Shown one piece after another: positions 1,886-12,908 of a DNA stretch of 64,000 nucleotides. Positions within the stretch are counted from its first letter, which is position 1. Each line of letters begins with the position of its first letter. The notes under the pieces are model-generated. The model ran no database searches and was not told the origin of the DNA. It saw nothing but the letters and a program-made list of their open reading frames with translations. This DNA is from Candidatus Magasanikiibacteriota bacterium (lineage in GTDB: Bacteria > Patescibacteriota > Patescibacteriia > Magasanikbacterales > GWA2-37-8), in assembly GCA_943359595.1 (NCBI GenBank), contig CALRIA010000002.1:10417-74416 (forward strand). Direction: 5' to 3'. The translations under genes were made by a program, and so were the position numbers.

Positions 1886-1891
1886 TTTTTT

Positions 1892-3181
1892 ATGAAACAG
1901 TCACCAAAAGAAAAAATAATAAAACAATTTTCTGCAATGCCTTGGCAACCTTGGTTGCATCGACGTTTTGATCCGTTAGTGACTTATCTCATTATGGTAG
2001 GTGGCACAAGAGAAATATTTAAAACTCAGGGGATAGATGGTGAGTTTCCAATTTCACTTTACGATACCAACGATTGGTATAGTACCCAAGAAATGCTTAG
2101 TTTAGCAAGCAATGAAGCCAAAAGTTTTTTGCAACAAAAAAATATTATTAATTTGACTCATCAATGTGACAATCTTCTTGAATTTAGTCGTACTGCAGTA
2201 GAACAATTATTATCAAATCCAGGTGATCCAAAAAAGGATTATGAACAAGTAATTAAAATTATCACACCATTAAATGTCTATGTTTGGGTAGCACATAGTT
2301 CGGAAGTTTATTATCATGATCTGATTAGCTCAGCTACTTCCGCTTTTGTCACCCCAGAAAAATTAGAAACTTTTATTGGTGACATTAGTTTTCCGGTTAG
2401 AAAAAATTCTCTCGCCTTAATGGAGAATGATATTCGCGCCGGTGAAACTACAAAAGTGCTTTATAAAAAATATGCTTGGATAAAAGCGCGTGGTGGTTTT
2501 AGGCCAGGTTATACGTTGGCAGAAATTCGAGATATTCAAAAGGAAATTTTAAATAAACCGCAAGATAAACATCGTCATGTAGAAGTTCCGCCAGCTTTAG
2601 AACAGGCTGTTGGCGAATTGCAAGAATTGGTATATTTGCGTACATTGCGCACCGATGCGCTTTGGGAATTATATTATCTAGCCCAGCCTATTTTTGATCG
2701 GGCAGCCAAAGCTTTTGGCGTTAGTTCCGTAAAAGATTATATTCCCGAAGAATTATTGAAAGGTAATATAAAGCCAGTGCCAAATAATTACGCTATTTTA
2801 AAAAATTATGACACTATTGTTGTTACTGATCCAATTATCAAATTAAAAAATTCAGAAGTTGCAAATAGTGTACGGGGTGTTGTGGCTTATCGCGGTATTG
2901 TTAGTGGGCCAGTAAAAATTATATTTACTCCTCAAGAAATCAGCAAGGTGGTGACCGGAGATATTCTTGTCACAAATATGACCATACCTGCTTATGTTTC
3001 CGCGATGTACCGCGCTGCCGCATTTGTAACTAACGAGGGAGGTATTACTTGTCATGCCGCTATTCTCGCCCGCGAGCTAAAAAAACCTTGCATCATAGGA
3101 ACCAGAGTAGCTACACAGATTTTTAAAGATGGTGATCTGGTGGAAGTGGACGCTGAAAAAGGAATTGTAAGAAAAATATAA
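1892..3181 (+). CDS. Paralog P2: variable domain + C-terminal PEP-utilizer swivel domain
   Basis: 429 aa. C-terminus GGITCHAAILARELKKPCIIGTRVATQIFKDGDLVEVD. It starts 6 nt after P1. Confidence 0.75.
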   Translation: MKQSPKEKIIKQFSAMPWQPWLHRRFDPLVTYLIMVGGTREIFKTQGIDGEFPISLYDTNDWYSTQEMLSLASNEAKSFLQQKNIINLTHQCDNLLEFSRTAVEQLLSNPGDPKKDYEQVIKIITPLNVYVWVAHSSEVYYHDLISSATSAFVTPEKLETFIGDISFPVRKNSLALMENDIRAGETTKVLYKKYAWIKARGGFRPGYTLAEIRDIQKEILNKPQDKHRHVEVPPALEQAVGELQELVYLRTLRTDALWELYYLAQPIFDRAAKAFGVSSVKDYIPEELLKGNIKPVPNNYAILKNYDTIVVTDPIIKLKNSEVANSVRGVVAYRGIVSGPVKIIFTPQEISKVVTGDILVTNMTIPAYVSAMYRAAAFVTNEGGITCHAAILARELKKPCIIGTRVATQIFKDGDLVEVDAEKGIVRKI

Positions 3182-3204
3182 AAAATAATTCTCTAAAAAG
3201 CAAG

Positions 3205-3229
3205 CACCACCGGATATTAACCGGTGGTG
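3205..3229 (+). terminator. Hairpin downstream of P2 (caccaccgg-atattaa-ccggtggtg), possible intrinsic terminator
   Basis: A 9-bp perfect stem immediately after the P2 stop. The following T-tract is weak, so it may just mark the island boundary. Confidence 0.3.
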
Positions 3230-3305
3230 TATGCACTTTTATGATTTTTCAGAAGGCGGTATGCTCAGGCGGAATGAAAAAACGGTTCCGTTTGAACTTC
3301 TTCAC

Positions 3306-3803
3306 CTAGTTGGTGCCAGTCGCGATGAATTCAATCTTGATCTCGTCGCCATCAACCTTGATCGCGTAGACTGATCCACTTTTGGCTTCCGAAAGTGGAA
3401 TGCCTAGAGCAAGCAGGACTTCGCGACCCGCGCAGATGACGGTCTCATTAGGGAGTTTTTTCAGCTTCGCCCTTAGCGATGGCCCAGCGTCTTCGCCGCT
3501 AGTGCAGGTTTCAAACGCCACCTTGATTCCGCTCGCCAGTACCAGCATCTTTTCGCCGTCGATCAACTCCAGACTGCCACAAGCACCGAAAACAGACGAA
3601 ATCTGCAACCGGACACCAGTGTCGGAATAGCCGAGCTCTTCAGCCACAGCAAAGTGCCGGAGAGCTTCGCCAATACAGACGAGCGGTGGATCGATTACGA
3701 GATGAATCCGCAACGATCGAACGCAGGTTTTGCCGGCAACGGTCATGTCTGGATCAGCACCAGTTTCCTTTTCTCCGTGGGTAACCAGATATAAGGTTTT
3801 CAT
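3306..3803 (-). CDS. SixA/PGAM-like (histidine-phosphatase-superfamily-like) small protein encoded inside GC-rich island A
   Basis: 165 aa from the ATG at 3803; the ORF track starts at a GTG at 3833. N-terminus MKTLYLVTHGEKETGADPDMTVAGKT resembles the RHG-x-x...T-x-x-G signature of SixA-type histidine phosphatases, with Thr in place of Arg. The region is about 57% GC against about 33% for the flanks. Confidence 0.35.
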   Translation of the reverse strand: MKTLYLVTHGEKETGADPDMTVAGKTCVRSLRIHLVIDPPLVCIGEALRHFAVAEELGYSDTGVRLQISSVFGACGSLELIDGEKMLVLASGIKVAFETCTSGEDAGPSLRAKLKKLPNETVICAGREVLLALGIPLSEAKSGSVYAIKVDGDEIKIEFIATGTN

Positions 3804-3995
3804 TTTTGGGCCCTTCTGTTGTATCTTAGACACCCATCATTTTCAAGCCACTCGACTTAAGTTTTTGGGATCTGTTGTAAAAGTGCATTTATTCTGGAAA
3901 GTTGCCTTAGTTAAGGCTTTTTTCACCATAAATAAACATTTTACCTTACCAAAAAATAGTCATTTTGTCAATGTCTGTGTAAATTTATGGCTAAG

Positions 3996-4018
3996 ATATA
4001 GACAAATTTTGTCTATAT
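3996..4018. promoter_or_regulatory. 23-nt perfect palindrome atatagacaaa-t-tttgtctatat about 35 nt upstream of the P3 start
   Basis: Read directly: two 11-nt arms are exact reverse complements around one central nucleotide. It lies in the intergenic gap created by island A, in front of paralog P3. Confidence 0.3.
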
Positions 4019-4049
4019 GATACTATTAAAGTAGTTAAATAAATCATTC

Positions 4050-5402
4050 ATGTTCAAAGCCAGTAAAATTTTTAAATACAGTTGGGAACTTTATGTTTCT
4101 CGTAACGTGTCTGTTTGGCACGATACTTTGCATTTGATAAGAAGTGATTCTGGTTATCATCATTACAAATTAGGTAAAATGTATGTTCAATTTAGAATTC
4201 ATCGTAATTTAGAATCGGATTTTTATTATGCACTTACTGGTAGTCGATCGGCAGAAGATTTTATTGGTCGATTAGAGAAAAATTTAGAAAAAAAAGAATA
4301 TGTTGATTTTCTTAAAAAGGAGTATCGAAAAGATTGCATAAAGTTTTTAGCTCGGTCTAAAAATTTAAAATCTACTACCAAAAGCTTAAAGTCATTTTTA
4401 AATAATTATGGCTATTGTAATGTTCTTTTAGATATAACTTCTCGAGCAAGTAAGATTTTGACCGATAAATTAATGTTTGATTTAAAGGATAATCGAAAGC
4501 GCGATGCTATTATTAGTTATTATGCTGTTCCAAAACAATTAGCACCGATTCAAAAATTAGAAAAAGAAGTGGCGAAATTATATCATGATAAAAATCTAGA
4601 TAAAATAGCTGAAAGATTATGGAAAAAATATTGCTGGATTCCGGTGAGTTTTGTAGGTGAACCTTGGAGTAAAGAATATTTTTTAAATTTGTTAAAAACA
4701 GCTAATAAAAAAGTTTTGAGAATTTCACAAAAACCAAGGGTAAAATTATCCGTTAATTTAAAACATCTTTTATGGGCACTGTCGCAGATAACCTATCTAA
4801 ACGAATATCGTAAGAGCATTTTTTGTCAGGTTAATTTGAATATCCGACCAGTTTTGAATGAAATAGCCAAACGGAGTGGTTTAAAAGATTGGAAGGAAGT
4901 TTCGTTATTGACCCATGAGGAATTAATTTTGGCTTCTGATGGTAAAAATTTTTCTAAGTTGGTGGCGCGTCGTCAAAAAGAAATTTTTGCTGTTCATAAT
5001 ATTGATAGTAATCAACTTCAGGTAGTATATGGATTACCGGTTAAAAAATTTGAAGATAATTTTAAGATAAAAAATACCAACGTATCTGAATTTAGTGGTG
5101 TTGTTGGAAATAAAGGAAAGATTATTGGTGTAGTAAAGATAATTTTAAAACACAGTGATTTTGATAAATTTAAAGATGGCGATATCCTAGTTGCCAACAT
5201 GACATCAGTAGATTATTTACCAATCATGAAAAAGGCCGGCGCGTTTGTCACCGATGAGGGTGGTCTAGCGTGTCATGCGGCGGTGGTAGCGCGCGAATTT
5301 AATTTACCCTGTATTATCGGCACCAAAATTGCTACAGTGGTTTTAAAAGATGGTGATATAGTGGACGTGGACGCCAACAATGGTATAATTAGAAAAATAT
5401 GA
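4050..5402 (+). CDS. Paralog P3: variable domain + C-terminal PEP-utilizer swivel domain
   Basis: 450 aa. C-terminus GGLACHAAVVAREFNLPCIIGTKIATVVLKDGDIVDVD. Shared N-terminal-domain block KIAERLWKKYCWIPVSF. Confidence 0.75.
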   Translation: MFKASKIFKYSWELYVSRNVSVWHDTLHLIRSDSGYHHYKLGKMYVQFRIHRNLESDFYYALTGSRSAEDFIGRLEKNLEKKEYVDFLKKEYRKDCIKFLARSKNLKSTTKSLKSFLNNYGYCNVLLDITSRASKILTDKLMFDLKDNRKRDAIISYYAVPKQLAPIQKLEKEVAKLYHDKNLDKIAERLWKKYCWIPVSFVGEPWSKEYFLNLLKTANKKVLRISQKPRVKLSVNLKHLLWALSQITYLNEYRKSIFCQVNLNIRPVLNEIAKRSGLKDWKEVSLLTHEELILASDGKNFSKLVARRQKEIFAVHNIDSNQLQVVYGLPVKKFEDNFKIKNTNVSEFSGVVGNKGKIIGVVKIILKHSDFDKFKDGDILVANMTSVDYLPIMKKAGAFVTDEGGLACHAAVVAREFNLPCIIGTKIATVVLKDGDIVDVDANNGIIRKI

Positions 5403-6473: not shown

Positions 6474-7936
6474 ATGTTTGAATATATCAAGTCTCACGAA
6501 GAACACTCGGTTACACCTTTGACTATTTCGCCCAATCACAATGCTTGGCCATCAAAGATTTTAAAAAAATTATTGGACGGTCATGAGGTAGGAGAGCAGA
6601 CTTTTTGTATTCACAGAGATCAAGGCCTGGAATTTTATGCCGATCATAATGCTTGGGATAGAGGATCGGATTATTTTTTGGAGAAATTAAAACGAGATAA
6701 AAAAATAGTAAAAGAGGTCTCTTTTAATTCTCACAGGATTGCCGATCAAATTTTAAAGAAAATCAGAAATTTTGAACGTCAAAATATAAAAAAATGGTCC
6801 AACAAAGAAATCACAAAATTTTTATCCAGTAGCTATAAGCTAGGCAATGATCTGTGTGCCTATGGTTTTATCCCGGTAATCTCCGATCATTTTTTTCATA
6901 AATTTACCGATCTCCTCAAATCTATCGTGAAAAATAAAGAAAAAAATATTTCAGTAAAAATGACCGTTCCGGAAATAATTTTTCTTTTGTGTTCTCATTA
7001 TAAACCCGTACCTTCTAAATTGGCTAGAATAAAATTATTAAAACTTTTAAAAAAAATACCAATCAAGAAAAGATAAATAATTATTACTCTGATTGGCATT
7101 GGGTAGGCTTTGGGCAGCTTGGTCCAGGAATTGAACCTCAAGAGTTTTTAGCCGGCGCCGACAGTCTCTTTAAAAATAAACATCTTATAGACAAGGAATT
7201 AAAAGAGTTGATAAATTCTCCAAAAATTTTACAGAAAAAACAAAAAGAATTAATCAACAAATTGCGTTTGAACACTCAAGAGATTTTTTTATTTTCTACC
7301 GCGCGTGAGTTTACTTATCTTAAAGGTTTAAGAATGGAAGTTCTGTTTGGTCTTTGCGCCGCTTGGAGTAAAGCGCTGGACGAAATTTCAATTCGATTAA
7401 AGATGGATAAAAAATTACTTTATTACGCTTCCATGGCGGAATTAAATTCCGCTTTGTCGGGACAACATAGTTTAAATAAAGAAATTTTAAAAGATAGAAG
7501 TAAATTTTGTGTTTGGGTAGCTAATACCGAAAGTACTCAGAAAATTTTAGCTGGCAAAGAAGCCAGAGAATTTTTGAAGACAGTTAAATTTAAAGAAGCT
7601 AAAAAAATTGAAAAAGTTTTGGTTATTCACGGTACGGTCGCGTCGGTGGGATATGCCAAAGGTACAGTGAGAATTGTGAATAAAACTTCAGAAATAAATA
7701 AAGTAAAAGAAGGCGATGTGCTGGTTTCGGTTGCCACTCATCCTGGATTACTTCCCGCCATGAAAAAGGCCTGTGCTTTTGTGACTGATGCCGGTGGTAT
7801 CACTTCGCACGCCGCCATAGTCGCGCGTGAGATGGGTAAGCCGTGTATTATAGGCACTAAAATAGCGACTAAAATTTTAAAAGATGGTGATTTGGTAGAG
7901 CTGGATACTAAGAGAGGGGATATTAAAAAAATATAA
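6474..7936 (+). pseudogene. Paralog P5, disrupted by a frameshift in an A8 homopolymer (7049-7056): N-terminal half 6474-7076 in frame 0, C-terminal half with swivel domain continuing in frame 2 to 7936
   Basis: Frame 2 is open from 7028 through 7936 with no ATG/GTG before the TTG at 7208. The combined length of about 486 aa matches the intact paralogs. Adding one A to the A8 run yields a continuous ORF (...LLKKNTNQEKINNYYSDWHW...). C-terminus GGITSHAAIVAREMGKPCIIGTKIATKILKDGDLVELD. Confidence 0.6.
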
Positions 7937-7946
7937 AAATAATTTT

Positions 7947-9455
7947 TTGAACAATATGACTAAGCACACACAAGGTGATTGGATGATGATGTCTCAGCGT
8001 CAACGCATGAGCCCGTTTCCAAACTATATGTCTATGGAATCGGTTTGCAAAGAGATGAAAAAATTTGTTGGAGTAAATTTAAAAGACGTACTTCTATTTT
8101 TTAAAGGTAACATGATGTTTGCCTTTCAAGATAGTAAAGCCCACGAACAAGCCGGACAAAAAATTGCCAGTAGGATAGAAAAAAATCCACTTATGTATAG
8201 GCGTTTGGTCAAGCAGGAAGAAATTTTTGGAAATAAATTGGTAAAATTTACCAAGTTGGCCGGACAGCAAACGAATAGTAAAACCAGCAATCGTCGTCTG
8301 TATGAGTGGTATACTCAGTATGAAAAAATGTATAAAAATGTTTATGCCACTTATGGCTCGGTTTGGACAATGGAAGATCATCTGGTAGCCAAACTTTATG
8401 ATATTGTTCACAAACGTTGGCAAGATGGCTCTAAAATTAGCAATACTTTGAATAGTTTGACCAAACAACCGCTCGCCATGGTGGCTACTATTGAGCGTCA
8501 AGCGATATTGAAAATGGCGGTAAAAATTTTGTCTTCATCCGGTTTATTAAAATTAGTTCAATCCGGGTCTTTGGAAAATATTAAAAAGAACAAGATATTG
8601 CATAAATTAATATCCACTCACGAAAAGAACTTCTTCTGGATTACCAGAGATTATGAAGATCCAATTTTAACTTATGATGATATTGTCAAAAAATTACAAA
8701 TCATTTTAAAGGAAGATCCTGTCAAACAACAAAAAGAATTAAATGATAGATTAAGTGGCGATTTACGTGAAAGAAAAAAATTGGAAAAAGAATTAAAACT
8801 CAACAAAAAAGAGTTGGCTTTGTTTGCTTCCATGCGCGATGCTGCCAATTTAAAAGAACAGCGTAAAAAATTTGTTTCTCAGTCTTTATATTATTTTGAT
8901 CCGGTTTTAAATGAGATTAGTAAAAGATTATTTTTAACTGTGAAACAGGTAAGATTTTTCCGTACTAGTGATGTTTATGAGGCTTTGGTAAAAAATAAAG
9001 ATTTGACTAGCGAATTAAATGAGCGTTTTAATTTATCAGTGTGGCATTCCAGTACCAATGGTACAAAAGTCACAGTTGGTAAGGAAGCGCAAAAAATATT
9101 TGATGAGTTTTGCCAAGTGGATAAAAATGCAAGCGAATTTACAGGCATGCCGGTGTCGCCAGGGGTGGCACGCGGTCCAGCCAAAATCGTTTTAAATCCA
9201 AATGAATGTGATAAGGTAAATAAAGGGGACATAATTGTAAGTGTTCAGGTGGTGCCAAGTTTTTCGACAGCGATTATTAAGTCAGCTGGTATAGTTTGTG
9301 ATGGTGGCCACGGTATTACTTCCCATCCGGCGACTTTGTCGCGAGAAGCGGGAGTACCGTGCGTGATTCAAACTAGATTTGTGCGCGAAGTGGTAAAAGA
9401 TGGTGATGTACTGGAAGTGGATGGATATAAAGGCATCGTAAAAATAATAAAATAA
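7947..9455 (+). CDS. Paralog P6 (most divergent): variable domain + C-terminal PEP-utilizer swivel domain
   Basis: 502 aa. C-terminus GGHGITSHPATLSREAGVPCVIQTRFVREVVKDGDVLEVD. Shared block LTVKQVRFFRTSDV. Confidence 0.7.
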   Translation: MNNMTKHTQGDWMMMSQRQRMSPFPNYMSMESVCKEMKKFVGVNLKDVLLFFKGNMMFAFQDSKAHEQAGQKIASRIEKNPLMYRRLVKQEEIFGNKLVKFTKLAGQQTNSKTSNRRLYEWYTQYEKMYKNVYATYGSVWTMEDHLVAKLYDIVHKRWQDGSKISNTLNSLTKQPLAMVATIERQAILKMAVKILSSSGLLKLVQSGSLENIKKNKILHKLISTHEKNFFWITRDYEDPILTYDDIVKKLQIILKEDPVKQQKELNDRLSGDLRERKKLEKELKLNKKELALFASMRDAANLKEQRKKFVSQSLYYFDPVLNEISKRLFLTVKQVRFFRTSDVYEALVKNKDLTSELNERFNLSVWHSSTNGTKVTVGKEAQKIFDEFCQVDKNASEFTGMPVSPGVARGPAKIVLNPNECDKVNKGDIIVSVQVVPSFSTAIIKSAGIVCDGGHGITSHPATLSREAGVPCVIQTRFVREVVKDGDVLEVDGYKGIVKIIK

Positions 9456-9469
9456 TTTATAAAAATAAA

Positions 9470-9497
9470 AACAACCTGATTAGTCAGGTTGTTTTTT
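9470..9497 (+). terminator. Rho-independent terminator of the paralog operon
   Basis: A 10-bp perfect stem aacaacctga / tcaggttgtt with loop ttag, followed by TTTT, 15 nt after the P6 stop. Confidence 0.6.
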
Positions 9498-9586
9498 AAA
9501 GCTCAATATTCTTTCGAGAAAAATATTAAGCTCTTGGGGACGCGAATTGCTTCGCGTCCCGTCGAGTGGGTGTACCCCAAAGCCCG

Positions 9587-10219
9587 TCAGTCCAACGGAA
9601 TCTTGAGCGGCTTGGCGCTGATGAAGGTCGCCTTGCCGTCCTTCACCTGGAACGTGGCCAGAACGGACTCGCCCCGGTCGACCAAGTTGTTGGCGATGTC
9701 GAGGACTTCGGCGGCGCTGCGATGGCCATTGAGCCACTGCATTGCCACTTCCATCCGCGCCACGCCGTGGCTGGTGACCAGGACGAACTTGCCGGGGTTG
9801 GCCACGGCGATTTCGGTCAGGGCGGTGGCACCTTCTTCCGCGCGCATCAGCATCAGCTCGTGCAATTCCGGCATCTCGGGCAGACACTTCGCCAGGCTCG
9901 AGTCGTCGTCGTTGCCGAACTGGGACTTCGCCATCTCCTTGAGACGATTCAGGCTGTCGGGTGCCGCGCGCTTGTCGGTCTTGAAGTCGCCCAGGCGGGT
10001 CTCGTTCTCGATCAGCAGCGAGATGCCAGCACCTTCGAGCATGCGTTCGGCAGTGCTGACCGCACGCGGAAGTGGCGAAGAGACGGCCGCTTCAATCTGT
10101 GCGGTCTTGCCCAGGACTTGACCACGCCGCCTGGCGCGGTCTGCGCCTTCGGTCGTGAGGACGTTGTTCTCGTGTTCCTCGTGTCGTGTTAACACGAGAA
10201 TGGTGGTTTTTGTGGGCAT
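9587..10219 (-). CDS. Histidine phosphatase superfamily (phosphoglycerate-mutase-like) protein inside GC-rich island B
   Basis: 210 aa from the ATG at 10219, which is preceded by the strong SD AAGGAGGTG. Motifs LVLTRHEEHE (RHG-like His1 region) and LVTSHGVARM (SHG His2 region). About 60-62% GC against a host value of about 33%. The ORF track start at 10255 is an upstream in-frame ATG. Confidence 0.6.
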   Translation of the reverse strand: MPTKTTILVLTRHEEHENNVLTTEGADRARRRGQVLGKTAQIEAAVSSPLPRAVSTAERMLEGAGISLLIENETRLGDFKTDKRAAPDSLNRLKEMAKSQFGNDDDSSLAKCLPEMPELHELMLMRAEEGATALTEIAVANPGKFVLVTSHGVARMEVAMQWLNGHRSAAEVLDIANNLVDRGESVLATFQVKDGKATFISAKPLKIPLD

Positions 10220-10309
10220 GGCCCACCTCCTTGGTTTAGCTAGAGACGCTAACATCTTCGCCGAAACCCTCGGACGAGAGATCCGGCTTGCCCGGTGACT
10301 GGTTATTCC

Positions 10310-10362
10310 CAGCTTAGTCAGTAACTAGGGATAAAATTTATCTATAGTTACTGACTAAGCTG
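10310..10362. promoter_or_regulatory. 17-bp perfect inverted repeat (cagcttagtcagtaact ...19 nt... agttactgactaagctg) at the right edge of GC island B
   Basis: Read directly. It sits in the divergent region between the island phosphatase gene (minus strand) and the AT-rich leader of the 10621 phosphatase gene. It could be an operator or a mobile-element/insertion boundary. Confidence 0.3.
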
Positions 10363-10620
10363 TGGGGTATTTAATTTTTCAAAGTACACTCACTCATTAT
10401 TGCTGTAGAACACCTATATTTACTGTTAGTAGATACGGTATGCCCATTTTGCAATAACAGTTGAGTATAGCATAAAATAGGGATTTTGTCAATATATTAA
10501 CTGCTTTTTTGGCTAAAGTTAGCTATTTAATTATTAAGGATAGCAATAATATTGGTGACTAGTGGATGGGTATGTTAAAATCCAATCTAAGTATGCTATA
10601 CTTATTATAAGTAATTTTTT

Positions 10621-11436
10621 ATGAGAGAATTTTTTGCCAGCCAAGATAGAGAATTTAATTCAGATATTGAAACAGAAAATGTTCGCGACTTACCAGTCGT
10701 GACGGCTTATATTATTCGTCATGGTGAGACCACGGAAGATAAATTAAATCCGAATCGTAGTTTGACCACAGAAGGCGAGAGTCAAGCCGACGACGCAGCC
10801 GAACAGCTAATCACCGAATTAAATCCACAGACAGACGTTATCCAAATTTTGGATAGCGGTAATCATCGCGCCAATGTGACCGTGGTGAGAATCGCGGAAA
10901 AATTAAAAGCCGCCGGTTTTAATTTTTTTGTTCCTGTACCTAGTGATAAATCCGGAAATCTGCAAGCAGAAAATATTCCTACTACTCCTGAACCAAAATC
11001 ACGTAGCTACAATAAAATTGCGGCCGCTAATATTCCAGATCAATTTAAAAAATTACTGGCTGATCCGGTATTGCACGCTGAGCTTGGACTTGGAAATGAT
11101 ATTCCGGATAAAAGAGTTATGACTTGGTTTATGATTCAAAGAGATGGTATGGAAACTCCACAGCAGGTATTGGAGAGGGTGCGCCAGGGTATGAATGATA
11201 CTCAAAAAAAATTACCTCAGTTAAATAAAGTTTTGTCGCCGGATCAACGCATTGTAGTGGTGGCGGCCGGCAATGCTTCTATGGTTGATTCGGTAGTCAC
11301 TGAAGCTTCCAAAGTTCACCCTAAAGACAGAGGTGGAGAAATTAGTAATTGTGAAGGATTTAAAGTTGATTTCAATTTAGGCGCTGATCCAAAGATTAAT
11401 TTATGGGGAGAAAATATTGAACAATATTCTAAATAA
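10621..11436 (+). CDS. Histidine phosphatase superfamily protein (host-like GC)
   Basis: 271 aa. N-terminal motif AYIIRHGETTED...SLTTEGESQA (RHG signature). Its stop is 8 nt upstream of the ATP-grasp gene, so the two are probably co-transcribed. Confidence 0.6.
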   Translation: MREFFASQDREFNSDIETENVRDLPVVTAYIIRHGETTEDKLNPNRSLTTEGESQADDAAEQLITELNPQTDVIQILDSGNHRANVTVVRIAEKLKAAGFNFFVPVPSDKSGNLQAENIPTTPEPKSRSYNKIAAANIPDQFKKLLADPVLHAELGLGNDIPDKRVMTWFMIQRDGMETPQQVLERVRQGMNDTQKKLPQLNKVLSPDQRIVVVAAGNASMVDSVVTEASKVHPKDRGGEISNCEGFKVDFNLGADPKINLWGENIEQYSK

Positions 11437-11444
11437 ATAAAATT

Positions 11445-12428
11445 ATGTCTCACATCAAATTTTTTAAACAACTTTCAAAAAGCAACGTCGATATCGCCGG
11501 TGGCAAAGGCGCCAGTCTTGGTGAGATGACGCAAGCCAAAATTTCGGTACCGCCTGGTTTTGTAGTTTTATCGGCTGCTTTTGATAGATTTTTACAAGAG
11601 ACTGGTTTAAAGGAAGATATTGTGGCGCAATTAAAAAAAGTTAATCCACAAGATACTAATTCAGTAGATAAAGCGAGTGCTGTAATTCGTGATATGATTC
11701 ACGATAAGTCGATGCCCAAAGATTTGGAAAAAGAAATTTTGGTTGCTTTTAAGAAATTAGATGCTAAATTTGTCGCAGTTCGTAGTAGTGCTACGGCAGA
11801 AGATTCAGCAATAGCTAGTTGGGCTGGTGAGTTGGAAACTTATCTTAATACCGAAAAGAAAGATGTACTAGAAAGAGTAAAACTTTGTTGGTCTTCATTA
11901 TTTACTCCACGGGCTATTTTTTACCGTCATGAAAAAAAATTGATCGATCACTATGTTTCGGTGGCAGTGGTTATCCAAAAAATGATTCAGAGCGAAATAT
12001 CCGGTGTGGCTTTTACCGTTCATCCAGTGACAGAAGATTATGACCAGATGATTATTGAAGCTGGGTTTGGTTTGGGTGAGGCAATAGTTTCAGGACAGAT
12101 TACTCCAGATAGTTATATAATTAGTAAAAGTGAAATGAGTATATTGGATATTAATATTAGTGAACAAAATAGAAAATTAATACGTAAGGTTGGTAAGAAA
12201 AAAGGAGAAGAAGATGAAGAGAATAAATCTAACCATTGGGTTAAGCTTGGCAAGGAAGGTAGTAAACAAAAACTCACTGGTAAACAAATTATTGCAGCAG
12301 CCGAGTTATTTAAAAAAATTGAAAAACACTATAATTTTCCATGTGATATTGAGTGGGCAATGGAAAAAAATAAAGTGTATATCACTCAAAGCCGTCCGAT
12401 TACAACATTAAAAAATAGCCAAATATAG
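11445..12428 (+). CDS. Stand-alone PEP synthase / pyruvate phosphate dikinase N-terminal ATP-grasp (nucleotide-binding) domain protein
   Basis: 327 aa collinear with PpsA residues about 1-340. Motifs IAGGKGASLGEM (PpsA VGGKNASLGEM), VRSSATAEDS (PpsA VRSSATAEDM) and DIEWA...ITQSRP (PpsA DIEWA...VQARP). It ends where PpsA/Rph would continue into the phosphohistidine domain. Confidence 0.85.
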   Translation: MSHIKFFKQLSKSNVDIAGGKGASLGEMTQAKISVPPGFVVLSAAFDRFLQETGLKEDIVAQLKKVNPQDTNSVDKASAVIRDMIHDKSMPKDLEKEILVAFKKLDAKFVAVRSSATAEDSAIASWAGELETYLNTEKKDVLERVKLCWSSLFTPRAIFYRHEKKLIDHYVSVAVVIQKMIQSEISGVAFTVHPVTEDYDQMIIEAGFGLGEAIVSGQITPDSYIISKSEMSILDINISEQNRKLIRKVGKKKGEEDEENKSNHWVKLGKEGSKQKLTGKQIIAAAELFKKIEKHYNFPCDIEWAMEKNKVYITQSRPITTLKNSQI

Positions 12429-12474: not shown

Positions 12475-12584
12475 TCGCTAATAACTTGGGCAACAAGAGT
12501 AGGTCAAAAGGCCAAAATATGTTCCCAACTAGGTCGTTTATTTATTTTCCAAACAACATTTTGGAATATATAAGGAATAATATT

Positions 12585-12908
12585 ATGGCTTTTGGATCTG
12601 ATAGACAAATGTACGATGTAGACTTGACTTGCGCAAAATGCGGAGCTCACATCTCACAGTTGCCTTTCCAACCTTCAGGTGATCGCCCAGTTTACTGCTC
12701 CGACTGTAACCGTGCTTTCCGCAAGGATCGTCCAGCTACAGATCGTGGTGGACGCGCTGGCGGTTTTTCCCAAGCTCCTCGCCAGATGTACAGTGTCAAC
12801 TTGAACTGCGCATCTTGTGGTCAGCAGATTTCTGAGTTGCCTTTCCAACCAACTGGTGACAAACCAGTATATTGCCGAGACTGCATGCAGGCTCGTCGCA
12901 ATGGTTAA
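12585..12908 (+). CDS. Small protein with two tandem CxxC-x17-CxxC zinc-ribbon repeats joined by an Arg/Gly-rich linker
   Basis: 107 aa. The repeats are MYDVDLTCAKCGAHISQLPFQPSGDRPVYCSDC and MYSVNLNCASCGQQISELPFQPTGDKPVYCRDC. Linker RKDRPATDRGGRAGGFSQAPRQ. The RBS aaggaataa precedes the ATG. The ORF-track start at 12486 is an upstream in-frame ATG with no RBS. Confidence 0.6.
   Translation: MAFGSDRQMYDVDLTCAKCGAHISQLPFQPSGDRPVYCSDCNRAFRKDRPATDRGGRAGGFSQAPRQMYSVNLNCASCGQQISELPFQPTGDKPVYCRDCMQARRNG

Follow-up and report, generated by a model that had tools for sequence, protein, structure and literature searches.

A conserved, antisense and GC-rich phosphatase-fold gene accompanies clusters of split PPDK_N and swivel-histidine genes

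Catalysis by histidine phosphatases normally requires the arginine of the RHG motif and a second histidine. The E. coli member SixA takes phosphate off the phosphohistidines of carrier and catalytic proteins, as described for NPr (PMC7948535) and Ndk (PMC12934123). Rifampin phosphotransferase (RPH), PEP synthase and PigC/RedH are single-polypeptide enzymes made of three modules, an ATP-grasp domain, a substrate domain and a histidine swivel domain; the domain logic has been set out for RPH (PMC4844700). We compared with these systems a 64-kb stretch of DNA (the window) from a Candidatus Magasanikiibacteriota bacterium, in which a GC-rich gene on the minus strand, gene A, lies within a cluster of swivel-domain paralogs. 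Our overall reading, whose probability we would put at roughly 0.55, is that gene A is a conserved antisense, GC-rich, phosphatase-fold accessory of split PPDK_N/swivel-His clusters, and that its product may act as a SixA-like brake. Leaving the brake aside, the reading comprises the gene, its clade, the association with the clusters, the antisense orientation and elevated GC3, a second GC-rich island (island B) and a unit P2-A-P3, and for this part our confidence is high.

Judging from domain matches, clusters with one stand-alone PPDK_N gene and several swivel-His paralogs look like split PEP synthase, rifampin phosphotransferase or PigC-type enzymes. The PPDK_N ATP-grasp protein of the window (11445-12428, plus strand), which presumably donates phosphoryl groups to all the swivel-domain paralogs, matches the PpsA, RPH and PigC models over their N-terminal 310-340 residues. 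The 450-aa paralog P3 (4050-5402, plus strand), with its C-terminal PEP-utilizers swivel-His domain, matches the C-terminal 130-215 residues, including the swivel histidine. P2 (1892-3181, plus strand) is a 429-aa swivel-domain paralog, and the GC-rich island that holds gene A, island A, does physically part P0-P2 from P3-P6. Another plus-strand gene of the window (10621-11436), normal in GC, is a third member of the histidine phosphatase superfamily, with a weak N-terminal SixA/His_Phos_1 match; it is missing from the related locus L006. Our literature search found neither such a cluster nor conserved GC-rich genes in CPR described.

Sliding windows confirmed the jump in GC content at 3190-3840 that had been noted in the preliminary description, and the minus-strand gene at 3306-3803 coincides with it. 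The figure of about 57% given there is a peak and not a mean, because GC reaches 0.56 in 200-nt windows but is 0.507 across 3190-3840; over the ORF it is 0.530. The adjacent sequence has GC of 0.387 (2500-3189) and 0.284 (3841-4540), and the mean of the whole window is 0.357. Measured in 651-nt windows across the 64 kb, island A has a z of 3.4 for GC, and the 14 of 1267 such windows that are as GC-rich all come from island A or from about 9250-10500. So abrupt a change in metagenome-derived sequence might signal an assembly chimera or contamination, with a GC-rich piece foreign to the genome, but the sequence at both junctions is the same in four assemblies (the ENA 217-kb contig, NCBI GCA_964734745.1, Logan ERR5863107 and a second ENA assembly) and homologous arrangements are found in unrelated samples. 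We give this explanation practically no weight.

Island A encodes a protein, from a gene at 3306-3803 on the minus strand. The longest ORF in the island is on that strand and is under purifying selection (dN/dS 0.24), with a third-position excess as a further coding signal, so the opposite-strand ORF pointed out earlier is a real gene. It extends over 3306-3833 with a GTG start or 3306-3803 with an ATG start; the N-termini of the homologs align at the ATG (3803), and a Shine-Dalgarno-like GAAGGG (3811-3816, minus strand), read from the sequence, precedes the ATG by a 7-nt spacer. The gene has GC of 0.53, and its GC at the three codon positions is 0.59/0.43/0.57, compared with 0.47/0.32/0.28 for the host (standard deviation of host GC3, 0.03). 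Its codon usage is unlike that of the host (codon-adaptation z = -6.5), and among the approximately 66 genes of the window gene A and gene B are the only GC3 outliers. GC-rich islands within AT-rich genomes are often structured RNAs, and the folding z-scores of the two strands (-2.7 and -2.5) might suggest that island A is a structured RNA or other non-coding element with a fortuitous ORF. However, these scores, from 20 shuffles, differ little between the strands and were computed with the terminator hairpin included, an Rfam scan of the window at the gathering threshold gave no match, and the reading frame under purifying selection encodes a member of a large protein family with a model pLDDT of 97. 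A non-coding island is therefore next to impossible in our judgment.

The 165-aa product, protein A, escapes sequence-based annotation. It had no match in Pfam at E<=1, the gathering threshold not being reached, and none in NCBIfam, including TIGR00249, at E<=0.01; single-sequence searches of PADLOC and PDB returned nothing. Its family contains 178 clusters at E<=1e-3, and 9 of 78 relatives weakly match PF00300 (best E 1.5e-5). The structural model is confident (pLDDT 97.4, pTM 0.92; a two-sequence AlphaFold run with pLDDT 58 was set aside) and has the alpha/beta fold with a central mixed beta-sheet that characterizes branch 1 histidine phosphatases (dPGM, SixA, PhoE, F26BPase). In Foldseek the best 50 matches were all histidine phosphatases, which bears out at the level of the fold the likeness to SixA/PGAM proposed from the sequence; together with the coding signal, these neighbors set aside the possibility of a non-coding ORF lacking phosphatase-fold homologs. 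Protein A belongs to a divergent clade, so far without annotation, within branch 1 of the histidine phosphatase superfamily, and has a PGAM/SixA-like fold.

The active site of this structurally confident clade is rearranged (THG ... GxGxR ... CxGR). The N-terminal motif reported earlier, MKTLYLVTHGEKE...MTVAGKT, is present, and the family profile aligns it to the RHG/LSxxG region of fructose-2,6-bisphosphatase. H9 aligns to the RHG histidine of that enzyme and is kept in 85% of 185 family members (91% of non-gap residues), while the position of the RHG arginine is a threonine (T8), again in 85% of the 185. R49, which aligns to R307 of F26BPase (R55 in SixA), is found in 97%. After the strand at 122-125 comes VICAGRE, without the second catalytic histidine (G126 in 88% and R127 in 69% of the 185 members); this segment was equated with the SHG segment (H108 in SixA) by secondary-structure position, not by residue-level superposition. 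With neither the arginine of RHG nor the second histidine, protein A is of uncertain activity. It may be a catalytically dead pseudo-phosphatase with a regulatory role, binding either a phospho-ligand or the phospho-swivel domain: the superfamily has a precedent in the acid-phosphatase-like proteins of fleas (PMC10728186), and threonine for the RHG arginine in most of the family and Gly-Arg for the second histidine would fit. We consider this improbable, since the nucleophilic histidine and R49 are so strongly conserved and the conserved R127 could replace the missing positive charge.

Homologs of gene A, at 25-59% identity, were found antisense to their neighbors in 15 other loci, all of them low-GC contigs; the named lineages are Moraniibacteriota and Buchananbacteria. 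Among the loci, which were gathered by way of the phosphatase gene itself, 12 were informative, and in 10 of these PEP-utilizers genes adjoin the A-like gene. The other two are L013, with an APH kinase and phosphoribosyltransferases, and L018, with a serine recombinase. Only 4 of approximately 98 neighboring ORFs run in the same direction as the A-like gene. Gene A is thus a conserved accessory of PPDK_N/swivel-His paralog clusters, on the strand opposite to its neighbors. It is also co-inherited with them: in locus L005, A and P3 are arranged as they are in the window, and identities to the window are 59% for A, 71% for P3 and 85% for PPDK_N. Across six loci the divergence of A tracks that of the linked PPDK_N (Mantel r 0.64, reached in 14 of 720 permutations), with L022 discordant.

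Comparison with a sister genome for an empty site gave a mixed answer. Gene A is indeed missing from the syntenic locus L006, but the indel is not the island alone: what L006 lacks is a 3.5-kb block, P2-A-P3 (about 1886-5398). Chimeric recombination as the origin of this indel was ruled out, the C-terminus of the 508-aa protein of L006 being 95% identical to P1 and not to P3. What close relatives have gained or lost is the whole unit P2-A-P3; within it A and P3, which are divergent partners, have a control region in common. The perfect palindrome described in front of P3 is present there (3996-4018; ATATAGACAAA T TTTGTCTATAT), with 11-nt arms free of mismatches; it is unique in the window at zero mismatches and is a putative operator. 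A sigma-70-like promoter-like site lies at 3999-4026 (TAGACA-16-TG-TACTAT), 24 nt before the ATG of P3, and the palindrome overlaps its -35 box and spacer. At the other end of the gene, a putative bidirectional intrinsic terminator (3205-3229) would end both P2 on the plus strand and gene A on the minus strand; it is a GC-rich hairpin between an A-run and a T-run, with a 9-bp stem containing 7 GC pairs, a T-tail on the minus strand and AAAAA upstream on the plus strand. Given this predicted terminator and the promoter-like site before P3, the locus would split transcription, in agreement with the earlier suggestion that island A may re-wire the operon.

Island B holds a second histidine-phosphatase family with the same properties as A and a stronger GC effect. 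Gene B (9587-10222, minus strand; GC 0.63, GC3 0.81) encodes a canonical His_Phos_1 phosphatase (RHE...SPLPRA...SHG), and upstream of it lies a palindrome with 26-nt arms (10310-10362) that is kept in L006 (9863-9915). The two families share superfamily, cluster type, antisense orientation and a conserved GC3 excess, and B appears to fill the same slot by PPDK_N in clusters without A (L006, L008). They differ in that hhalign aligns A with B over the N-terminal 56 columns only, at a probability of 3%, and in that the product of gene B, at 210 aa with a cap-like insertion, retains all the canonical catalytic residues. A long plus-strand ORF over island B, which is a gene call in L001, was rejected as an artefact because it is the exact reverse-complement frame of gene B and is open solely through the rarity of A-ending codons. 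Public gene calls overlook such genes or put them on the wrong strand, as at island B in the ENA contig.

How the GC-richness should be read depends on its history. In low-GC genomes the GC3 of gene A is usually much above that of the host: the excess averages +0.23 and is above +0.1 in 12 of 15 A-family genes, being almost nil in the other three, and it averages +0.48 in B-family genes (4 of 4). Fourfold sites of A and B orthologs differ at 0.54-0.73, near saturation, yet their GC4 is 0.57-0.95; that of linked PPDK_N and P3 genes is 0.26-0.45 (window, L005, P3 copies), rising to 0.53-0.71 in the PPDK_N genes of L006 and L008. The GC-richness of gene A is maintained and does not represent the vanishing remnant of a recent transfer. 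The preliminary description had instead taken island A for a recent arrival, a segment of about 600 bp that came from a high-GC donor and landed precisely, in antisense, within an existing paralog operon. Composition atypical at all three codon positions, the codon-adaptation score given above and absence from syntenic L006 are what such an event might leave, but the old antisense family in 15 other low-GC loci, its co-divergence with the linked PPDK_N, and synonymous sites that are near saturation relative to L005 and L017 and still GC-rich do not fit a recent arrival. Nor does the L006 indel, in which P2 and P3 are host-like in GC. The tRNA scan of the window found none, the ORFs beside island A are all cluster genes with no integrase among them, only hairpins and palindromes, and no flanking direct repeats, turned up around the island, and no donor-like relatives appeared among 5.8 billion proteins, viral contigs, plasmids and phages. 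We therefore regard the recent acquisition as very improbable.

Several simpler causes of the GC-richness were also tried. Orientation was ruled out by the remaining minus-strand genes of the window, approximately 30, all with GC3 of 0.21-0.38, amino-acid composition as the sole cause by the GC3 and GC4 values, and high expression by the ribosomal-protein genes at 17.2-21.2 kb, with GC3 of 0.22-0.38. No shared DNA motif was found in 4-mer enrichment against synonymous-codon shuffles (mean z at most 1.1). In a bolder version of the maintained state, high GC and atypical codons would be actively maintained by selection or a gene-specific biased process in two independent histidine-phosphatase families, always antisense within the split PPDK_N/swivel-histidine clusters of CPR-type bacteria, and the composition would be part of the regulation of the antagonist, for example as a rare-codon throttle on translation or a GC-stabilized mRNA insulated from the AT-rich genes around it. 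On that view the cluster would be a phosphotransfer system of many paralogs, not described before, that comes with phosphohistidine phosphatases of its own. This version is speculative, and we think it unlikely.

The brake in our overall reading can be pictured as follows. PPDK_N would load phosphate from ATP onto the swivel histidine of each paralog, and from the paralogs it would go to acceptors that differ from one to another. Protein A, acting like SixA, would strip the phosphohistidine phosphate from its partner swivel domain or domains, so that flux is reset or limited. With a promoter of its own, an antisense position and GC-rich codons atypical of the host, gene A would be expressed separately from the kinase paralogs and probably below them. 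By analogy with SixA, we offer the phosphohistidine-phosphatase mechanism of protein A as a tentative proposal, to which we give somewhat less than even odds. Alternatively, A (and B) may be small-molecule phosphatases that act on the acceptor products of the swivel paralogs, in recycling or in a kinase-then-phosphatase pathway, and not on protein phosphohistidine. The structural neighbors are mostly metabolite phosphatases (CobC, PhoE, fructose-2,6-bisphosphatase, phosphoserine phosphatase), the insertion in B is longer, as is typical of a cap region, and the A-like gene of L013 adjoins an APH-type small-molecule kinase. Protein A, however, is SixA-sized and has no helical cap, and it goes with swivel-His clusters as such and with no particular paralog type; we judge the small-molecule role unlikely, if well short of negligible.

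The locus is a counter-example to the rule that a compositional island means recent horizontal transfer, since the GC and codon anomaly here has long been passed down within a gene family. It links the protein A clade and the canonical B family to a gene arrangement that is widespread in small uncultivated bacteria but has not been described, and in which many swivel-histidine paralogs appear to share a single ATP-grasp protein. It also offers a testable hypothesis of phosphohistidine control beyond two-component and PTS systems.

Gene A resembles a classical horizontally acquired genomic islet in its atypical GC and codon usage and its patchy presence between close relatives. It differs in that its position and orientation are kept across deep divergence and its composition shows no decay toward the host, GC4 being 0.57-0.85 where 4-fold sites differ at 0.54-0.69; mobility genes and tRNA are absent. 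With CobC, PhoE and fructose-2,6-bisphosphatase (PF00300), protein A shares a profile alignment of the N-terminal half that covers the catalytic histidine and arginine, but it is shorter, lacks the helical cap, falls below the Pfam threshold and is missing two of the four canonical residues of the phosphate pocket.

The cluster supplies the same three modules as rifampin phosphotransferase, PEP synthase and PigC/RedH. Unlike in those enzymes, the ATP-grasp module is a gene of its own, at least 9 paralogs carry differing N-terminal domains, and phosphatase-fold genes are embedded in the cluster. SixA (PDB 1UJC; TIGR00249) has the same fold as protein A and nearly the same length (161 and 165 aa); the model of protein A is equally compact (SixA is approximately 160 aa), with a short beta-hairpin region at residues 77-96 in place of a cap. 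In both, an N-terminal beta-strand leads into xHG, which holds the nucleophilic histidine, both keep the arginine after strand 2, and the dephosphorylation of phosphohistidine by SixA is the activity that protein A may exert on swivel-domain His~P. In contrast to SixA, protein A has THG for RHG and Gly-Arg for the second catalytic histidine (H108 in SixA), is only about 14% identical to it and matches neither TIGR00249 nor Pfam, and its antisense, GC-rich gene is tied to split PpsA/RPH-like clusters instead of two-component or PTS-Ntr proteins.

The GC-rich island A lies between P2 (1892-3181) and P3 (4050-5402), two of the plus-strand swivel-domain paralogs P0-P6, and is a protein-coding gene. 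Across 3190-3840 the GC content averages 50.7%, rising to 53.0% within the open reading frame (ORF) at 3306-3803, compared with 35.7% for the window overall, 38.7% to the left (2500-3189) and 28.4% to the right (3841-4540). The 57% given in the preliminary description holds as a peak (a maximum of 56% in 200-nt windows), not as a mean. Measured in 651-nt windows, the island is 3.4 sd over the mean, and the 14 of 1267 windows that are as GC-rich are confined to it and to a second island at about 9.25-10.5 kb. The minus strand carries its longest ORF. Because GAAGGG precedes the ATG at 3803 with a 7-nt spacer, and the N-termini of homologs agree with this start, we place gene A at 3306-3803 (165 aa), as originally described. 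Compared with a homolog of 59% amino acid identity in contig L005 (Logan SRR11476867), it differs at 46, 39 and 93 sites in codon positions 1, 2 and 3, with dN 0.33 and dS 1.41. When 1.84 billion cluster representatives were searched with a profile, 178 relatives passed E<=1e-3 and 81 of these E<=1e-10; almost all are 150-185 aa long.

An assembly artefact is ruled out as the source of the island, since four assemblies encode the exact protein with unbroken junctions on both sides: an ENA 217-kb contig (L001), GCA_964734745.1 (L002), Logan ERR5863107 and another ENA assembly. Of these, the two shorter contigs (L003 and L004) have no mismatches to the window, and the longer L001 and L002 are identical to it from its start up to 7046. 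Past this point L001 is identical again to at least 13000, save for a 10-nt copy-number difference at 7037-7046; for L002 the identity stated covers the stretch to 7046. The repeated unit, ATTAAAACTT, lies in P5 (6474-7946) and is present once in the window but in two tandem copies in L001 and L002. The single copy frameshifts P5, leaving ORFs of 200 and 242 aa in place of 490 aa; the difference may be on/off variation of this paralog between strains or may stem from assembly.

Single-sequence searches with protein A returned no Pfam, NCBIfam, PADLOC or PDB sequence match. An AlphaFold model built with a 78-sequence alignment (pLDDT 97.4, pTM 0.92) had as its top Foldseek matches only branch 1 histidine phosphatases, among them CobC (E 2e-8, TM 0.69), fructose-2,6-bisphosphatase, PhoE and TTHB049. 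In the profile alignment to fructose-2,6-bisphosphatase, 'IYiVTHGek' falls on 'IYLCRHGES' and 'GtGrRhldvAeaLG' on 'TSHMKRTIQTAEALG'. The model and alignments thus support the earlier likening to SixA/PGAM as far as the predicted fold is concerned; membership on the terms of PF00300 and TIGR00249 is unsupported, as A falls below both thresholds. Among 185 family members, conservation is high at T8 (85%), H9 (85%), G10 (78%), P18 (92%) and G24 (92%), at G45 (98%), R49 (97%), G73 (99%) and G92 (90%), and at G126 (88%), R127 (69%) and Y146 (85%). On this pattern the family retains the nucleophilic His as well as the second catalytic Arg. A conserved Thr stands for the arginine of the RHG motif, and the segment after strand 3 reads Gly-Arg where SixA has Ser-His. 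Because the pocket keeps just two of its four canonical residues, phosphatase activity is putative, and the missing Arg and His favor the alternative that A is an inactive phospho-binding regulator, which we consider less likely than the enzymatic role proposed below.

The island is confirmed and its fold assignment supported, but the evolutionary interpretation offered with them, a recent acquisition from a high-GC donor, is not. In 15 further A-family genes at 14 loci (25-59% identity), including metagenome-assembled genomes named Candidatus Moraniibacteriota and Candidatus Buchananbacteria, the gene is oriented opposite to its neighbors; only 4 of about 98 neighboring long ORFs share its strand. 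One contig (L023) carries tandem paralogs at 833-1288 and 1442-1900 (GC3, the GC at third codon positions, 0.76 and 0.56), both against the strand of their neighbors. Of 12 informative loci, 10 have a PEP-utilizers gene adjoining the A-family gene, and PPDK_N usually lies close by. The exceptions are L018, with a serine recombinase, and L013 (Candidatus Buchananbacteria), where the gene at 7001-7498 is antisense to an APH-type kinase and three phosphoribosyltransferase genes and has a GC3 excess near nil. That APH context, along with the metabolite phosphatases among the structural neighbors of A, favors a second alternative, also less likely in our view, in which A acts on a phosphorylated product.

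Descent points the same way. Between the window and L005, identity is 59% for A, 71% for its divergent partner P3 and 85% for PPDK_N, and over six loci the pairwise identities of A and the linked PPDK_N are correlated (Mantel r 0.64, reached by 14 of 720 permutations), with L022 discordant. The syntenic relative GCA_964355175.1 (L006; identity 84% for PPDK_N, 76% for alaS and 70% for B, the gene in the second island) had the potential to reveal an empty site. There P4 directly follows P1, whose ortholog is not chimeric, so that the whole P2-A-P3 block is missing, not the island alone. Thus, the unit of gain or loss is a 3.5-kb module, whose large genes P2 and P3 have host-like composition (GC3 0.24-0.25). 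Within the block we found no tRNA or recombinase, only hairpins and palindromes. The contigs of all these related loci are low in GC (34-45%), no relative was found among viral contigs, plasmids or phages, and in 5.8 billion proteins word-based searching turned up solely protein A and its L005 homolog. On its position, co-inheritance, indel unit, the lack of a donor in these searches and maintained composition, we consider recent acquisition of A very unlikely.

The compositional anomaly appears to be maintained, and is shared by a second phosphatase family. Gene B, on the minus strand at 9587-10222, encodes a canonical His_Phos_1 member (E 2e-11) with RHE, SPLPRA and SHG motifs; its island (9500-10310) is stronger than A, reaching 65% GC, with GC raised as well in the 100 nt on either side. 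Homologs of B on low-GC contigs, one named Candidatus Magasanikbacteria, are antisense too, next to PPDK_N or PEP-utilizers genes, and their GC3 is 0.82-0.90; over four lineages at 42-74% identity the range, with B itself at 0.81, is 0.81-0.90 and the mean excess +0.48. In public annotation, the gene called over island B (L001 3602-4228, plus strand, corresponding to window 9566-10192; 208 aa, without a Pfam match) is on the wrong strand: it is the exact reverse-complement frame of B and is kept open solely by the rarity of A-ending codons.

For A, GC3 is 0.57 compared with 0.28 (sd 0.03) for 14 host ORFs, and its closest relatives reach 0.77 (L005) and 0.84 (L017) on contigs whose other genes have 0.28-0.30. 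The excess over the host is greater than 0.10 in 12 of 15 family genes (mean +0.23, range +0.02 to +0.53). Four-fold sites differ between orthologs by 0.54-0.69 in A and up to 0.73 in B, at or near saturation, yet their GC content (GC4) is still 0.57-0.95; in the linked P3 and PPDK_N of the window and L005 lineages these sites are equally saturated (0.61-0.75) with GC4 of 0.26-0.45. Simple amelioration would have wiped out the excess across such divergence, and we therefore treat GC-richness as a stationary property of both families. Also raised are GC1, GC2 and the ratio Arg/(Arg+Lys), and in all 13 genes examined GC3 is lower over the first 20 codons than over the remainder. Of about 66 window genes, only A and B are GC3 outliers, other minus-strand and ribosomal-protein genes being normal, and both are poorly adapted to the window's own codon usage (z = -6.5 and -9.8). 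Candidate causes are selection for poorly adapted codons that throttle translation of an antagonist, selection on mRNA or DNA GC content, and biased gene conversion with frequent exchange between related bacteria; no DNA motif shared among the GC-rich genes was found. In L019, an M20 peptidase gene (3450-4655; GC 0.58, GC3 0.71) adjoining an A-like gene is also GC-rich, on a contig whose other genes have 36-46% GC, so the property is not restricted to phosphatases in every lineage. Lesser GC peaks of 0.44-0.47 lie over the 3' swivel-domain part of each paralog (1601-1800, 2901-3100, 5201-5400, 7701-7900 and 9101-9400).

A GC-rich hairpin of 9 bp (3205-3229) is preceded by an A-run and followed by a T-run, an arrangement that fits bidirectional termination of P2 and A. 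The palindrome at 3996-4018 is perfect, as reported earlier. It has 11-nt arms and overlaps a promoter-like site (TAGACA, 16 nt, TG-TACTAT) at the -35 box and spacer, 24 nt ahead of the P3 start. Given these predictions, which are consensus matches only, the suggestion that the operon is split here is reasonable. Longer palindromes (22-26-nt arms) lie upstream of antisense phosphatase genes at window 10310-10362, L006 9863-9915 and L005 2573-2622; the first two precede gene B, whose palindrome is conserved between the window and L006, and the last precedes an A-like gene. The L006 center (TATAGACAA...TTGTCTCTA) is similar to the A/P3 palindrome TAGACAAA-TTTGTCTA, and a common regulator is possible.

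Each of P0-P6 ends in a PEP-utilizers swivel-histidine domain, while the PPDK_N ATP-grasp protein is encoded separately at 11445-12428 (E 3e-96). Just before it, a third histidine-phosphatase-superfamily gene (10621-11436, plus strand, 271 aa, weak N-terminal SixA/His_Phos_1 match) has ordinary GC, follows the operon strand and is missing from L006. Immediately 3' of PPDK_N, in L006 as well, is a gene whose small product carries two zf_Tbcl_2 treble-clef zinc-finger repeats (12486-12908, plus strand; E 5e-28; local GC peak 0.51). A TrwB/VirD4-like type IV coupling ATPase lies beside the paralog cluster in three lineages (L001 16493-18406, L006 17877-20051, L008 17878-18310). Literature searches found no published description of the A/PPDK_N/swivel arrangement or of its compositional anomaly.

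A is a divergent, previously undescribed form within a known enzyme superfamily and has a conserved genomic setting, and we infer that it most likely acts as a phosphohistidine phosphatase resetting transfer between PPDK_N and the swivel domains. PPDK_N would move phosphate from ATP onto the swivel His of every paralog, the N-terminal domain of each presenting a distinct acceptor, and A (B analogously) would strip it off again, serving as a reset or brake; a separate promoter, opposite strand and atypical codons may uncouple its level from that of the kinases. Such activity would resemble that of SixA, which dephosphorylates NPr and the catalytic phosphohistidine of Ndk (PMC7948535, PMC12934123). 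Against the NCBIfam models for PEP synthase, rifampin phosphotransferase (RPH) and PigC/RedH, PPDK_N covers the N-terminal 310-340 residues and P3 the C-terminal 130-215, and the cluster therefore resembles the three-module enzyme described for RPH (PMC4844700), except that its modules are split and a single ATP-grasp module would serve many substrate-plus-swivel paralogs.
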